DNA of 64,000 nucleotides, from the IMG/VR virus record IMGVR_UViG_3300028797_000097. One strand, given 5' to 3'. The position numbers and the translations under genes were made by a program. The DNA is from a virus. Lineage: Duplodnaviria; Heunggongvirae; Uroviricota; Caudoviricetes. Positions 47,735-50,953 of this stretch are shown piece after piece. Position 1 is the first letter of the stretch. Every line of letters starts with the position of its first letter. Under the pieces are notes generated by a model. The model saw nothing but the letters and a program-made list of their open reading frames with translations, did no database searches and was not told the origin of the DNA.

Positions 47735-48028
47735 ATGTTAGATACTTTAATGTTAATCTGTGGTTTTTGTGGAGCTGGTGCTTTTGCAGTTTGTTCATTA
47801 CCACAAGTTATTAAAGCTTATAAAACTAAGTCGACAGGTGATATAAGTATTTTCTTTATTATCTTGTCAATTATCGGTAATTTATGTAGTGCTGCTTATA
47901 TATTCTATACTAATTATATAAGTGGAATGTGGCAATATCCGCAATATGTAAATTATACTTTGGCAACTATACTTATATTTATCCTTCTCGGGTTAAAACT
48001 AAAATATGATAAGGAAAATAAAAAATGA
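47735..48028 (+). CDS. PQ-loop / SemiSWEET-like small membrane protein (97 aa, three predicted TM segments)
   Basis: RBS aaaggaag before ATG 47735. PQ motif CSLPQVIKAYKTKSTGDISIFFIILSIIGN. The stop overlaps the next start (ATGA). Confidence 0.5.
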   Translation: MLDTLMLICGFCGAGAFAVCSLPQVIKAYKTKSTGDISIFFIILSIIGNLCSAAYIFYTNYISGMWQYPQYVNYTLATILIFILLGLKLKYDKENKK

Positions 48029-48684
48029 GTATAATGGATCTTATCGGTGTTCAAAGAGGAATTGATTTTGAACATAGTTTACCAACTGTAATGCGATATA
48101 AACCTGATATAAGAGAAGGTTATGAATATGGCAGTTTTGAACCTAAATATGGTCATACGCCAAATTGGCAACCTTTATGTAGTAATTCTTCAGACTTATA
48201 TAAAGAAATCGTTTTAGCATGTAAGCAGGTTGCAAAAGTTACAGAAATGAAAAATCCAATAGGTAATGATCCTTTTTGGCATCGTAGTGGACCTGAACGT
48301 GCAGGAACGATTGTTTCTAAGATAATACAGCTTTGTAATGATATTGCTATTGCTACTCGACAAGGTCAAGGCAATGTTATTGTATTAAATACTAAGATGT
48401 ATGATTTATTACGTGAGTTAACATTTGGTTTTATGGATTGCCCATTTATTTCTGAATCTGCTCCAGGCGTATTAAAGATTGTTGGAAGAGATGCTTTTAA
48501 AATGGATTTTGACGATTATTCAAATTATCCAGAAGCTATTATGACATATCATTCTAATAATTCGTGTGTATGTGGTGCTATTGCAGCACTTAGTCCTACC
48601 GAGACTTATTTTTCAATTAATACTGATATGGAAGGAACAGAGAATTATTATAGACTTTTAAGGGTAAAAGATGAATTACAGTAA
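48025..48684 (+). CDS. Paralog A of an uncharacterised 220-aa family flanking nrdG
   Basis: Homologous to 49152..49823 (M.I.DLI.VQ; GTIVSKIIQLCNDIAIATRQGQGNVIVLN vs CGVLLTNLMKECNSIRTSTRRCAGNYILIN; C-terminal YYRL). Confidence 0.5.
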   Translation: MSIMDLIGVQRGIDFEHSLPTVMRYKPDIREGYEYGSFEPKYGHTPNWQPLCSNSSDLYKEIVLACKQVAKVTEMKNPIGNDPFWHRSGPERAGTIVSKIIQLCNDIAIATRQGQGNVIVLNTKMYDLLRELTFGFMDCPFISESAPGVLKIVGRDAFKMDFDDYSNYPEAIMTYHSNNSCVCGAIAALSPTETYFSINTDMEGTENYYRLLRVKDELQ

Positions 48685-49183
48685 AATTGATCCAATGAGT
48701 ATTGTCGATGGTGACGGTTGTCGAGTAACACTTTTTGTTTCAGGTTGTAGAAATCATTGTAAAGGGTGTTTTAATCCAGAAACATGGAATTTTGACTATG
48801 GTCAACCATATACAGAAATTACAGAAAATGAAATTATTGAAGCCTGTAAGAAATCATATATTGCTGGGTTAACTGTTCTTGGTGGAGAACCAATGGAAAA
48901 AGAAAACCAAGCAGAAATTTATAAACTCATTACTAATTTCAAACGTGCATATCCTGGTAAAAATGTTTGGTTATTTACTGGTTATATTTATGAAAAAGAT
49001 TTATTAGAAGGTCAGCGTCAAAATATAAATGGGTTAACTTCTTCTTTATTAGAAATGGTTGATATTCTGGTTGACGGACCATTTATTCTTGAACAGAGAG
49101 ATTTGAATTTAAAGTTTAGGGGAAGCACGAATCAAAGGCTATTAACAAGAGATGAAAGACAAAGGTTACAAAATGACAATTAA
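48671..49183 (+). CDS. nrdG: NrdG, anaerobic RNR activating radical-SAM enzyme
   Basis: GDGCRVTLFVSGCRNHCKGCFNPETW, GGEP and VDGPF...RGSTNQR. Confidence 0.9.
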   Translation: MNYSKIDPMSIVDGDGCRVTLFVSGCRNHCKGCFNPETWNFDYGQPYTEITENEIIEACKKSYIAGLTVLGGEPMEKENQAEIYKLITNFKRAYPGKNVWLFTGYIYEKDLLEGQRQNINGLTSSLLEMVDILVDGPFILEQRDLNLKFRGSTNQRLLTRDERQRLQNDN

Positions 49184-49823
49184 AGACTTAATTAAAGTCC
49201 AGAAGAAAGACGGATTATTTAAAAACTGTGCATCCGTTTTAAGATATATTCCAAGAGAACTATTATTCGATGGTAGAGAAGCTGACCGTCCAGAATTAAC
49301 ATTGGGTCTTGAAAGACAACTTATCCATGAAAAAGATTGGAAAGATGCAAGTGATGAAAGTAAGAAAGAATTAGATGTAATTCATGCATGTATGGATGTT
49401 GCTAATGTTATTGAAATTCACAAAGATCCAGAGTCTACTGCTTCTAAAGAAGAACGTTGTGGTGTATTGTTGACTAATTTAATGAAGGAATGTAATTCTA
49501 TTAGAACAAGTACTCGCCGTTGTGCAGGTAATTATATTCTTATCAATAATGCATTTAAGAAAGAATTAGAAGAACTTGGTGCATTTTCAACTCCATTTAT
49601 TAATGTTTCAACTGATAACACTGAATATCTTGTTAATGGTGTTATTAAAATGAGTGTTGCAACATTTGATGAAGATACACCAATGGCATTAATCGGATAT
49701 TCTGGAACTAGTAGGTTTGATGGTGGAATCGTTTTAGCAGAAGACGAAGAAAATAATAAGTATGCGATTGCTGACCGATTCTACGATAGTGATAAGTATT
49801 ATAGATTAATTAAACTTGTATAG
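49152..49823 (+). CDS. Paralog B of the 220-aa family
   Basis: See paralog A. Overlaps the end of nrdG by 32 nt. Confidence 0.5.
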   Translation: MKDKGYKMTIKDLIKVQKKDGLFKNCASVLRYIPRELLFDGREADRPELTLGLERQLIHEKDWKDASDESKKELDVIHACMDVANVIEIHKDPESTASKEERCGVLLTNLMKECNSIRTSTRRCAGNYILINNAFKKELEELGAFSTPFINVSTDNTEYLVNGVIKMSVATFDEDTPMALIGYSGTSRFDGGIVLAEDEENNKYAIADRFYDSDKYYRLIKLV

Positions 49824-49826
49824 AAT

Positions 49827-50756
49827 ATGAGATATATTAAAGGGAGAAGTAATTTAAGTTGCACAATTTTTGTGCCATGGGATTGTAATAATCATTGCAA
49901 GTTCTGTACATCTAAGCAGATGTATAAACAAAGAACTTGTGATATTAATGCAATTCTTGCACAAATCAAAAAACTTAATGAAAATCCGTTAATTGAAGAA
50001 TTTGTATTAACAGGTGGAGAACCATTAGCAGATATTGAGAAATGTCAGATTCTTATTGACGCTATGGAGAAACCTGTTTATATCAATACTACATTCCCAA
50101 CATTTACAGATTTGCCTGGAACAGTAGAAATGTCTAAAGTCAAGACGTTAATCGATTTCATTAATAATAATGAAAAGATTGGTGGTTTGAATATTTCCAG
50201 ACATATGCATCAACAGTTTTATGAACCAGTTTTGCCAGTAGATATGTTTGCACATTTAATTAAGAAACATATTAAATTAAATGTAGTTCTTTCTAAGGAG
50301 TTTAATATAAACGAATTTAAAGCGTTTATAGAACCTTATAAAGAATTAGAAAATCTATCTATCTGTATTAGAGCAGATTATCGGAATATTACTAAAGATA
50401 ACTTAAAGAATCGTGACGATGTATTTGAAAAGTTAATTTTAGAATATGAATATGAAAGTTCTGGCGGATGTATGGTTTGTAATGACGATAGATTTTGGAA
50501 TAATAATTTATTAATCAGTTATCATCGTGGAATGGAACATTCTAAAGTAGTTTATGGTAATAAGATATTTGTAAATGATATTTTGATTACTATTGATGGA
50601 CAAGTTTATGATGACTGGGATTTAGTAACAAATACAGAATTTGAAAGATGGGTATTTGGCGAATATTTATTGACAGATGATATATCTGAATATGAAAATG
50701 ATCCAGTATATATTGATTGGTTATTGAAAAAGAATGGTGAAGAAGGTATATTATGA
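49827..50756 (+). CDS. Second radical-SAM enzyme (309 aa) with a C-terminal CxxC (possible auxiliary cluster)
   Basis: CTIFVPWDCNNHCKFC (CxxxCxxC), GGEPL and a C-terminal GGCMVCNDD. Confidence 0.7.
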   Translation: MRYIKGRSNLSCTIFVPWDCNNHCKFCTSKQMYKQRTCDINAILAQIKKLNENPLIEEFVLTGGEPLADIEKCQILIDAMEKPVYINTTFPTFTDLPGTVEMSKVKTLIDFINNNEKIGGLNISRHMHQQFYEPVLPVDMFAHLIKKHIKLNVVLSKEFNINEFKAFIEPYKELENLSICIRADYRNITKDNLKNRDDVFEKLILEYEYESSGGCMVCNDDRFWNNNLLISYHRGMEHSKVVYGNKIFVNDILITIDGQVYDDWDLVTNTEFERWVFGEYLLTDDISEYENDPVYIDWLLKKNGEEGIL

Positions 50757-50953
50757 CATTAACTGAATTACGACAAAAACTTAAAACCGCAGGTATGAAA
50801 CAACTTAAAATTACTGGTTGTGGTGGATATGTAGGATGTGGAACTGGTGGTTATTATGACTATGCCAATGCACATTTTGGAAATCCTCCACAATGGGTAT
50901 CGTATAGTTGCGGATTTTATATGAGATGTGGTGGTCCTACTACATGTGGTTAA
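50753..50953 (+). CDS. 66-aa Cys/Gly-rich peptide with the family N-terminal module, translationally coupled (ATGA) to the radical-SAM gene
   Basis: MTLTELRQKLKTAGMKQLKITGCGGYVGCGTGGYYDY...YSCGFYMRCGGPTTCG. Confidence 0.45.
   Translation: MTLTELRQKLKTAGMKQLKITGCGGYVGCGTGGYYDYANAHFGNPPQWVSYSCGFYMRCGGPTTCG

Follow-up and report, generated by a model that had tools for sequence, protein, structure and literature searches.

The nrd locus described here is a mosaic of three components: a class III ribonucleotide reductase (RNR) operon, a PQ-loop gene together with two paralogous genes, A and B, and a separately acquired cassette that begins with a second radical-SAM gene, rSAM2. The phage that carries it is an uncultured T4-like jumbo phage of the ruminant gut (rumen) with AT-rich DNA, of which we analysed a stretch of 64,000 nucleotides, hereafter the window. 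We found that A and B encode miniature versions (~216 aa, roughly half-size) of the HK97 capsid fold of the T4 gp23/gp24 type. These two genes are ancient duplicates that evolve much faster than their neighbours, yet remain intact. The original prediction that this locus is not a simple nrdDG cassette is borne out, as it holds more than nrdDG. Its explanation, a duplicated pairing of a 220-aa paralog with a radical-SAM enzyme, did not withstand the comparison with related loci.

Organisation of the nrd locus

The features of the locus, in window coordinates, are the following.

44938-44963, terminator-like hairpin at the 5' boundary of the unit
45105-45112, plus strand, promoter-like motif TATAAATA of the T4 late-promoter type, 84 nt 5' of nrdD
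45189-47660, plus strand, nrdD, 823 aa, with an ATP-cone, a C-terminal Zn-ribbon Cys cluster and the RRITGYL glycyl-radical motif
47692-47711, plus strand, hairpin between nrdD and the PQ gene, with an 8-bp stem and a weak T tail
47735-48028, plus strand, gene of a PQ-loop/SemiSWEET-like membrane protein, 97 aa (PF04193)
48025-48684, plus strand, paralog A, 219 aa, miniature gp23-type HK97-fold protein, the hypervariable allele at position A
48671-49183, plus strand, nrdG, 170 aa, radical-SAM activase of NrdD (TIGR02491, PF13353)
49152-49823, plus strand, paralog B, miniature HK97-fold protein, 223 aa from 49152; the likelier start at 49173 gives 216 aa (MTIKDL...)
49827-50756, plus strand, rSAM2, 309 aa, first gene of the variable cassette, from an uncharacterised radical-SAM family
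50753-50953, plus strand, Cys-Gly-repeat peptide, 66 aa, probable substrate or partner of rSAM2
50956-50986, both strands, strong bidirectional intrinsic terminator with a 13-bp stem and T runs on both strands
50994-51605, minus strand, convergent gene, 203 aa, with a MNLLEARELLKNKGY N-terminus followed by a Cys/Gly/Ser-rich region

The presence of a class III RNR operon in this phage is clear. NrdD matches PF13597 with 500 bits, in addition to PF03477, PF01228 and phrog_487 (E 3e-172), and NrdG scores 171 bits against TIGR02491 (cutoff 126) and E 9e-49 against PF13353. Both proteins thus exceed the cutoffs of class III RNR models and carry the expected motifs, RRITGYL in NrdD and CRNHCKGC in NrdG. 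The PQ-loop protein matches PF04193 (50.2 bits, cutoff 22, E 2e-13) and reaches 30 bits against NCBIfam SemiSWEET_2, which has a cutoff of 80. Its ATG at 47735 is preceded by a AAAGGAAG ribosome binding site. We favour this start over the alternative TTG at 47690 because the hairpin at 47692-47711 overlaps the latter, and because the gene is called at 97 aa in relatives. The hairpin itself may act as an attenuator or as an RNA-stability element.

Seven genes joined by overlaps or 4-nt gaps had been described between 47735 and 50953. The genes and their overlaps are real, but the span contains six of them, with nrdD lying outside. The PQ gene and A overlap by 4 nt (ATGA), A and nrdG by 14 nt, nrdG and B by 32 nt (11 nt with the B start at 49173, which most homologs use), and rSAM2 and the peptide gene again through ATGA. 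On the other hand, the gap between B and rSAM2 measures 3 nt, and 74 nt, with the hairpin among them, lie between nrdD and the PQ gene. Tight packing is ordinary in this phage: 21 of the 52 same-strand junctions in the whole window have a spacing of at most 4 nt, and overlaps number 12. Although the five tight junctions in a row at the nrd locus form the longest such run in the window, a run of this length is about what the 40% base rate predicts, so that the coupling here is no more than expected by chance.

We counted 27 copies of the TATAAATA motif in the window where 14.6 would be expected, a number reached by none of 100 shuffles, and the copies lie mostly just 5' of gene starts in the matching orientation. 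No copy occurs inside 47660-50953. Downstream, the bidirectional terminator closes the operon on the plus strand as well as the minus-strand genes that converge on it. This layout of promoter and terminator suggests that A and B are co-transcribed with the nucleotide-metabolism genes. Within the window, the motif precedes replication genes (helicase, recombinase) as well as structural genes, and therefore it is not a marker of late genes here.

A and B are miniature HK97-fold proteins

The homology between A and B, already noticed in the original prediction, was confirmed by BLASTP (28% identity, E 2e-20), and the two families share 21 invariant columns. In searches against PF07068, the family of T4 gp23 and gp24, B scored 28.3 bits, above the cutoff of 24.4, and A scored 22.3 bits (E 1e-4), just under it; these matches span about one third of the 376-position model. 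Many homologs of A and B have a precomputed match to the same family. A profile combining A and B, searched against 1.84 billion representatives, recovered about 20 clusters of the short family and then full-length gp23-like proteins of 410-530 aa, starting at E 7e-10. Moreover, a profile search of the PDB matched gp23 at E 0.009, whereas the profile of A by itself reached no gp23 there.

Structure prediction for B, from an alignment of 24 sequences, returned an HK97 fold (pLDDT 85, pTM 0.83). Among known structures, this miniature fold comes nearest to the T4 vertex protein gp24 and to gp23. The assignment of A to the same fold is based on its homology to B and its sub-threshold Pfam match.

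A and B share the T-R-R-G-x-G-N motif with the genuine gp23 proteins encoded in head modules. Unlike real capsid proteins, they have no N-terminal prodomain, N-arm or insertion domain, and they are less than half as long as T4 gp23 and gp24. Their genomic context is also distinct. In T4, the genes of gp23 and gp24 adjoin those of the portal, protease and scaffold. Similarly, the genuine gp23 homologs in four of the loci compared (L009-L012; 428-440 aa) lie 3' of scaffold-like genes, with the prohead protease among their neighbours. In contrast, A and B (216-219 aa) are embedded in a nucleotide-metabolism operon, among the PQ gene, nrdG and non-structural genes, and outside any head module. Finally, gp23 and gp24 are conserved, whereas A and B are hypervariable and consist of two paralogs flanking nrdG.

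Encapsulins are also HK97-related systems to be considered, and the classical ones (Family 1 and 2 shells) are among the closest known systems to A and B. However, neither A nor B matched the encapsulin Pfam families (PF04454, PF08967). The Family 4 'A-domain' encapsulins (PF08967; PDB 2pk8) are cellular proteins of about 100 aa that retain the A-domain only and occur in hyperthermophilic archaea and two Bacteroidetes genera (PMC8346489). A and B differ from them in their size (~216 aa), their full miniature fold, their gp23 lineage, their location in phages and their fast evolution.

A tblastn search of A and B against 50,697 GenBank phage records returned no match. Members of the family are found in at least four phage lineages, and the length of their reading frames is conserved (206-252 aa) with alleles down to 24% identity. 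In the other lineages, the mini-HK97 genes are located 3' of metallophosphatase genes or between gp32 and a PD-(D/E)XK nuclease gene, and none of them adjoins a radical-SAM gene. Had A and B been ordinary conserved T4-like hypotheticals, present in relatives apart from radical-SAM genes and merely packed tightly, the original prediction would have lost its basis. As it turned out, the occurrence apart from radical-SAM genes and the ordinary packing were largely confirmed, but the description as ordinary T4-like hypotheticals does not fit the two proteins.

A and B are hypervariable but intact

Across related loci, nrdD is 91-100% identical, the PQ gene 88-99% and nrdG 66-98%. In these same relatives, identity ranges from 24 to 93% for A and from 41 to 98% for B, with divergent alleles of 24-48% at position A and 41-59% for B. 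An adjacent tail-fibre-like gene is about 38-62% identical, and A and B drop lower. The dN/dS ratios point in the same direction: A has 0.29-0.81 and B 0.09-0.45, compared with 0.03-0.11 in nrdD. In the close pair formed by the window and L004, dS is alike across genes (0.13-0.16), and dN is 0.045 in A against 0.004 in nrdD. No disrupted reading frame of A or B was found at any locus compared.

These values call for caution regarding the selective regime. Gene-wide dN/dS is below 1 for both genes, and the local windows of A that exceed 1 rest on few substitutions. Relaxed constraint together with recombination could be the source of much of the pattern. Divergence is mosaic between adjacent genes of the locus, and some relatives carry inserted homing-endonuclease-like genes (with a Zn-finger and DUF7487), located between nrdD and the PQ gene in L005 and between A and nrdG in L034 and L035. 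Such insertions may drive the mosaicism without any arms race. The nrdD-nrdG region of T4 is likewise a plastic site for mobile endonuclease genes, namely mobC, mobD and I-TevIII. The present locus resembles it in the insertions and the mosaic divergence, and departs from it in that the resident non-RNR genes are a PQ-loop protein and two proteins with a miniature capsid fold. All loci of the clade keep the order A-nrdG-B, including those with exchanged alleles, a constancy that would also fit a role linked to NrdG.

The rSAM2 cassette is a separate module

The duplicated two-gene unit originally proposed would pair A with NrdG and B with rSAM2, in each case as a partner or substrate of the enzyme. 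In the window, this model draws on the order paralog, radical-SAM, paralog, radical-SAM, on junctions that overlap or nearly abut, and on the true paralogy of A and B. Comparison of the nrdDG loci in relatives, however, showed that the adjacency of B and rSAM2 is not conserved, and we now regard the model as very unlikely. At 10 of the 14 related loci rSAM2 is missing and B is present; all ten keep nrdG-B, and nrdD-PQ-A is also found in every one whose contig extends that far. There, the minus-strand genes come next after B, in some cases with a small plus-strand ORF in between. Conversely, rSAM2 homologs occur without an adjoining mini-HK97 gene, having a Cys-Gly peptide downstream or fused instead. 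NrdG, for its part, already has a known substrate in class III RNR systems, NrdD, and the homing-endonuclease-like gene of L034 and L035 splits A from nrdG. Tight junctions, as noted above, are usual in this genome, and the mini-HK97 genes of other lineages have no adjoining radical-SAM gene. The apparent repeat is best explained by a cassette that landed beside B, that is, by the coincidence of two unrelated modules.

The sequence of rSAM2 contains a CxxxCxxC core and a GGEP motif, and matches PF04055 with 35.2 bits (cutoff 29.5). Residues C20, C24, C27 and G63-G64-E65-P66 show no variation among 30 homologs, and in the C-terminal half the sole conserved residues of this kind, C215, C218 and H233, are invariant as well. 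There is no SPASM domain and no SPASM/twitch auxiliary-cluster Cys set. The AF2 model (pLDDT 90.9) has the peptide epimerase EpeE/YydG as its nearest solved structure (Foldseek E 2e-6, TM ~0.48). In NCBIfam, rSAM2 reached no named maturase family (YydG 18.8 bits against a cutoff of 300, HxsC 25.6 against 268), and its longest alignment was to TIGR04078.

A small ORF with [G/S]-C-G repeats, homologous or analogous, lies directly 3' of rSAM2 homologs in four lineages (the window with L004, L005 and L037; L018 with L025-27; L021-23; and L024), and 12 of 120 homologs are fusions of the enzyme with a Cys-Gly tail of the same kind. No such peptide adjoins two distant homologs (~30% identity) from GC-rich gut contigs. 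The 203-aa convergent gene accompanies rSAM2 in the window, L004, L037 and partly L005, it is absent from the 10 loci without rSAM2, and an analogue adjoins the rSAM2 homolog of L025. Thus, rSAM2, the 66-aa peptide and the convergent Cys-rich gene form one linked module.

The CxxxCxxC core and the small peptide gene directly 3' are features shared with the RiPP radical-SAM maturases EpeE/YydG, SkfB and TigE. C215, in the C-terminal region, can be likened to EpeE/YydG, whose structures were deposited as C223A and D210A mutants. The resemblance is partial, given the low TM and NCBIfam scores and the missing auxiliary Cys set. In addition, the peptide motif, unlike that of YydF, consists of [G/S]-C-G repeats with a terminal C or CG, and, unlike the EpeE/YydG module, this one is phage-borne and includes enzyme-peptide fusions. 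Judging from these sequence features, rSAM2 is a candidate peptide-modifying maturase, and the 66-aa Cys-Gly peptide is its probable substrate or partner. The cassette is an independent acquisition that landed 3' of B, and rSAM2 would most likely modify its [G/S]-C-G-repeat peptide post-translationally. The 203-aa convergent Cys-rich protein, which has a similar N-terminus, may be a second substrate. Hence, the earlier notion of enzyme-substrate pairs survives in one case, the probable pair of rSAM2 and the Cys-Gly peptide, while the pairing of B with rSAM2 is contradicted by comparative genomics.

Possible roles of A and B

Our preferred guess, which we put forward tentatively, sees A and B as exapted mimics of capsid proteins that act in a conflict. 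Produced apart from the head module, such mimics would either bind or jam the host's sensors of the capsid protein's HK97 fold or disturb the way in which rival phages assemble their capsids. Many deeply diverged alleles would then persist through diversifying selection and through the exchange of cassettes among related phages. Capsid mimicry is plausible in light of the finding that the host sensors Avs7, Avs8 and Avs10 bind monomers of capsid protein by wrapping around their HK97 fold (bioRxiv 10.64898/2026.01.04.697583). Nonetheless, an Avs-type sensor that recognises a mimic should be triggered by it rather than blocked, which counts against mimicry. A very different reading of the variability, that A and B are functionless remnants of duplicated capsid genes decaying in a region churned by homing endonucleases, could invoke the raised dN/dS, the insertions at two operon junctions and the coming and going of the rSAM2 cassette. 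We consider it extremely unlikely in view of the intact and length-conserved ORFs in at least four lineages, the gene-wide dN/dS below 1, the 21 invariant columns and the confidently predicted fold.

A and B could also act on the phage's own head, as minor capsid or vertex components or as modulators of the assembly of the jumbo capsid, for instance of its size or shape. This role would parallel that of T4 gp24, a paralog of gp23, or of satellite-encoded capsid-protein homologs that redirect assembly. The proximity to gp24 and gp23 in structure is in line with it, as is the presence 5' of nrdD of TATAAATA, the main promoter-like signal in the window and of a type that marks late promoters in T4; as noted above, the same motif precedes helicase and recombinase genes here. 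We find this role quite unlikely. A and B lie outside the head module, where the true gp23 homologs adjoin prohead protease and scaffold genes, and proteins of ~216 aa devoid of an N-arm or prodomain are ill-suited to co-tile with a capsid protein of 410-530 aa. Furthermore, structural capsid proteins are usually highly conserved among phage genes, and A and B are the most variable.

Unlikely too, if somewhat less so, is a role of A and B as HK97 scaffolds associated with enzymes or as a minimal shell resembling encapsulins. Their capsomer-like rings or closed particles would organise or protect NrdD, an oxygen-sensitive glycyl-radical enzyme, along with NrdG, its activase; the clients in other lineages would be the neighbouring phosphoesterases or nucleases. 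Consistent with this idea, nrdG is flanked by A and B at every locus of the clade, and a mini-HK97 gene is found directly 3' of or beside an enzyme gene in three other lineages. This layout matches the 'enzyme then truncated HK97 protein' arrangement of Family 4 A-domain encapsulins (PMC8346489). However, shell proteins are normally conserved, whereas A and B are the fastest-evolving genes of a locus in which the supposed cargo, NrdD, is 91-100% identical. The encapsulin families remained unmatched, no cargo-targeting peptide was found, and the neighbouring enzymes vary by lineage. Close gene spacing, moreover, is ordinary in these genomes, and in L034 and L035 A and nrdG are parted by a homing-endonuclease-like gene.

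Taken in its strict form, a non-virion HK97 assembly (a capsomer ring or an encapsulin-like nanocompartment) in which two ~216-aa paralogs organise or shield NrdD and NrdG during infection is distinctly improbable. If true, no smaller complete HK97 shell protein would be known, and the assembly would be the first encapsulin-like organelle to be encoded by a phage.

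Two capsid-fold paralogs in a ribonucleotide reductase operon

The proteins encoded on either side of nrdG, A and B, are paralogs (28% identity, E 2e-20), as the original prediction had held. Their genes lie among the following features:

44938-44963: terminator-like hairpin, preceding TATAAATA and nrdD
45105: TATAAATA motif, upstream of nrdD
45189-47660, + strand: nrdD (ORF call and HMM score)
47692-47711: hairpin, inside the 74-nt gap between nrdD and the PQ-loop gene
47735-48028, + strand: PQ-loop gene (PQ), 97 aa (ORF call and HMM score)
48025-48684, + strand: A (ORF call; paralogous to B)
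48671-49183, + strand: nrdG (ORF call and HMM score)
49152-49823, + strand: B (ORF call; paralogous to A)
49827-50756, + strand: rSAM2, the second radical-SAM gene (ORF call; HMM confirms the radical-SAM core)
50753-50953, + strand: 66-aa Cys/Gly peptide gene (ORF call)
50956-50986: strong bidirectional terminator, after the peptide gene
50994-51605, - strand: convergent Cys/Gly/Ser-rich gene, 203 aa, co-occurring with rSAM2

Both paralogs gave weak matches to the Pfam T4 Gp23 major capsid family, B at 28.3 bits, over the threshold, and A at 22.3 bits, just under it. Among 1.84 billion representative proteins, a joint A and B profile retrieved about 20 clusters of short proteins (190-252 aa) and, beyond these, full-length gp23-like proteins of 410-530 aa, starting at E 7e-10. 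The same profile aligns to gp23 residues about 347-449 in PDB sequences. Together, the profile, Pfam and PDB matches indicate that A and B are miniature HK97-fold proteins of the gp23/gp24 type without the prodomain and the insertion domain. Genuine gp23 genes with the same motifs encode 428-440 aa and lie inside head modules; A and B carry gp23 homology, and the HK97 fold, in a non-structural context. A profile made from A only found no match in PDB sequences at E up to 1, so that the fold assignment of A depends on its homology to B. PHROGs assigned A to no family and gave B a weak match to major head proteins, NCBIfam and PADLOC returned no match for A, B or the 66-aa peptide, and a few short look-alikes (149-250 aa), all uncharacterised, are present in BFVD.

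We rejected the idea that A and B are the pieces of a split capsid gene, as each has its own conserved N-terminus and start codon and the two form old paralog clades. When the window was searched by tblastn with 94 family representatives for its own major capsid protein, the only matches were A and B. Six of the ORFs in 24800-38577 that reach 100 aa or more (382, 377, 512, 428, 532, and 437 aa) were compared with PHROGs and gave no match at E up to 1e-5. No full-length major capsid gene is recognisable in the window. Neither tblastn of A and B nor megablast of the 8.2-kb region found a match in 50,697 GenBank phage records, and the nearest phage NrdD proteins are 30-37% identical. Judging from the GenBank search, the window clade would have no cultured or annotated relative.

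More distant members of the A/B family occur as one copy per locus, in contexts unlike the nrd operon. In L018 and L025-L031 the mini-HK97 gene is directly 3' of a metallophosphatase, in L017 it follows a nucleoside-deoxyribosyltransferase-like/metallophosphatase fusion, and in L032 and L033 it is flanked by gp32 and a PD-(D/E)XK nuclease. Their common theme is a neighbourhood of non-structural genes for DNA or nucleotide metabolism, not a radical-SAM partner. The broad family alignment (A3) is too divergent for locus scanning, and a scan with one subgroup returned no loci.

Gene layout and transcription signals

The ORFs of the layout proposed earlier match ours, but nrdD falls outside the span assigned to the operon, with 74 nt between it and PQ. 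From PQ to the peptide gene, the junctions are, in order, an ATGA overlap, a 14-nt overlap, a 32-nt overlap, a 3-nt gap, and an ATGA overlap. Most B homologs begin at the second Met (MTIKDL), hence B probably starts at 49173, which reduces its overlap with nrdG to 11 nt. Tight coupling had been put forward as a special feature of this operon. This does not hold, since 21 of the 52 same-strand junctions in the window are equally tight (4 nt or less; overlaps number 12), and the run of five tight junctions, the longest in the window, is roughly as long as expected from a 40% base rate.

The promoter-like motif and the terminator layout make nrdD through the peptide gene look like one transcription unit. 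The T4 late-promoter consensus, TATAAATA, occurs 27 times in the window against 14.6 expected, a count reached in none of 100 shuffles. It usually lies 10-30 nt 5' of a start codon and points the same way as the gene, at sites including 3941, 13200, 16033, 24788, 39140, 45105, 53116 (- strand), and 53158. Since copies stand ahead of both replication genes (helicase) and tail-fibre-like genes, the motif may serve this phage as a general promoter element and not a late one. An Rfam search of 44000-54000 found no RNA family, and the window contains no tRNAs. The NrdD protein is unusually long (823 aa); its Pfam and PHROG matches split into residues 3-408 and 476-822, and the intervening insert of some 70 aa, residues about 408-476 (VEILENVIGVKVRGKDEAT...KLKKLIENTT), has no match.

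Divergence of A and B between conserved flanks

All close homologs are metagenomic; their contigs, the longest of 427 kb, come from cattle, buffalo, and goat gut samples. Fourteen related loci retain the order nrdD-PQ-A-nrdG-B, with very different degrees of conservation from gene to gene.

Identity across relatives
NrdD: 91-100%
PQ: 88-99%
NrdG: 66-98%
B: 41-98%
Protein at the position of A: 24-93%

A and B thus diverge extremely between conserved flanks while their ORFs stay intact. The neighbouring tail-fibre-like gene is about 38-62% identical, and A and B drop lower. In two loci, L013 and L016, the protein at the position of A is at least as similar to B as to A. A neighbour-joining tree resolves two old paralog clades with deep allelic branches in each, and the duplication is ancient. 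Pairwise dN/dS is 0.29-0.81 for A, 0.09-0.45 for B, 0.09-0.27 for nrdG, and 0.03-0.11 for nrdD and PQ. In the close pair formed by the window and L004, dS is similar across genes (0.13-0.16), yet in dN A exceeds nrdD about tenfold. All alleles of A and B are intact, and 21 invariant columns are common to both families. A and B are functional, fast-evolving proteins. Two sliding windows in A with dN/dS above 1 were discounted as positive selection, as they contain very few synonymous changes.

Unequal dS between adjacent genes indicates that recombination shuffles the operon region. In addition, homing-endonuclease-like genes (Zn-finger and DUF7487, nuclease-like C-terminus) are inserted between nrdD and PQ in L005 (2568-4481) and between A and nrdG in L034 and L035 (4359-5513 in both), differing junctions that mark the operon as a target of mobile genes. 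These last two loci (JAFQXD010000042.1 and JAFRFB010000097.1) are on contigs of 173-191 kb with 32% GC and a 99% identical NrdD. Both were assigned to goat-gut MAGs that carry the label Methanobrevibacter sp., which could reflect compositional mis-binning or hint at the host.

An independent radical-SAM and peptide cassette

The operon had also been read as a duplicated unit, in which each paralog is followed by its own radical-SAM enzyme. The cassette of rSAM2, 66-aa peptide, and 203-aa gene is present in the window, L004, L005, and L037 (the 203-aa gene of L005 is partial). Ten other related loci keep B and lack both rSAM2 and the 203-aa gene; the peptide is missing too, save for a homolog in L016. 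Comparative genomics therefore contradicts a pairing of B with rSAM2. The cassette is independent of A and B, and the peptide is linked to the enzyme. The apparent repeat is an accident of the cassette inserting beside B, and family members elsewhere do not require the putative pairing of A with NrdG. The broader expectation that the locus is more than a plain nrdDG cassette was borne out.

The rSAM2 enzyme family is large and yielded more than 340 matches. A small [G/S]-C-G-repeat protein ending in C or CG lies immediately 3' of rSAM2 in every phage-like context examined, namely the window clade, L018 with L025-27, L021-23 (Bacilli MAG-binned contig), and L024 (269-kb contig). In 12 of 120 homologs among the matches listed, a [G/S]-C-G tail is fused to the C-terminus of the enzyme; homologs of 372-382 aa are examples of such fusion proteins. 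Peptide cysteines are followed by Gly in 84 of 114 cases and preceded by Gly or Ser in 83 of 114, with Tyr enriched at -3 and -4. The enzyme itself has CxxxCxxC and GGEP motifs, invariant C215, C218, and H233, and no SPASM domain. With its AF2 model (pLDDT 90.9) as query, the best Foldseek match was EpeE/YydG, a radical-SAM peptide epimerase (E 2e-6, TM about 0.48), followed by viperin-like enzymes, SkfB, and TigE. By adjacency, fusions, and enzyme features, rSAM2 and the peptide make up an enzyme-peptide module that is conserved and belongs to an undescribed family, and the conserved linkage and the fusions favour a peptide substrate. We rejected a second NrdG-type activase, as the NrdG2 match is confined to the N-terminal radical-SAM core, and a viperin-like enzyme, as the pVip matches are weak (E about 4e-4). 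Two human-gut 'Bacteriophage sp.' records with 30% identical rSAM2 homologs lack the peptide; they are GC-rich and bacterial-looking, and added no information on the module. In L024, a Tad2-like (anti-Thoeris) Pfam match at 3520-3918 is directly 5' of the rSAM2 homolog and its Cys-Gly peptide, a hint that the module can have anti-defence genes as neighbours.

A short N-terminal motif, M-x-L-x-E-A-x-x-x-L-K-x-x-G-Y, recurs in the 66-aa peptide, in the 203-aa protein, and in three neighbours poor in Cys; it is a weak candidate for a recognition element. Four tandem genes of 203, 124, 144, and 211 aa (50994-53096, - strand) are alike at this end (M-N-L-x-E-A-x-x-x-L-K-x-x-G-Y) and otherwise dissimilar, and all four lack matches in Pfam, PHROGs, and PADLOC. 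Copy number and membership of this set vary among related phages; L034 has two different 118-aa members at 6716-7887. Farther downstream, repeat-rich, tail-fibre-like genes of 1128, 116, 702, 496, and 214 aa (53190-61188, + strand) constitute a second variable cassette adjoining the operon. L001 and L002 lack the block where the 211-aa gene is followed by the HSP20-like gene, and in other relatives it is only about 38-62% identical or rearranged.

Possible roles of A and B

Virus capsids and cellular encapsulins are the known settings of the HK97 fold. In the favoured though tentative reading, A and B might act as capsid-protein mimics in a conflict role, a possibility suggested by a divergence pattern like that of anti-defence loci and tail fibres. 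Hosts do possess sensors that wrap this fold, such as Avs7, Avs8, and Avs10 (bioRxiv 10.64898/2026.01.04.697583). It is unlikely, though conceivable, that A and B would instead build an enzyme-associated scaffold or an encapsulin-like assembly; this would parallel the Family 4 A-domain encapsulins (PMC8346489) but fits poorly with hypervariability. Somewhat less probable still is a part in the assembly of the phage's own head, for which gp24 and gp23, the closest structures, would speak, whereas the A and B genes lie outside any head module.

With B kept where rSAM2 is missing, a pairing of A with NrdG and B with rSAM2 is very improbable. Non-functional remnants are hardly credible, given intact ORFs and dN/dS below 1. 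The probability left over from these five roles belongs to something else.

In the literature, incompletely covered, we found no report of non-structural mini-gp23 paralogs or of a [G/S]-C-G peptide/radical-SAM module. The locus would extend two established themes, exaptation of the HK97 fold and modification of peptides by radical-SAM enzymes. This phage keeps two extra, half-size, non-structural copies of a capsid fold within a metabolic operon. If they are mimics aimed at host sensors of the HK97 fold such as Avs7, Avs8 or Avs10, they would represent a new class of anti-defence proteins and a handle on the evasion of capsid sensing; a role in scaffolding or enclosing radical enzymes would make them encapsulin relatives encoded by a virus. 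rSAM2 and its [G/S]-C-G-repeat peptide represent an undescribed enzyme-peptide family with natural enzyme-substrate fusions. The family is spread over phages of the gut and rumen and is a tractable system in which to look for new peptide chemistry.
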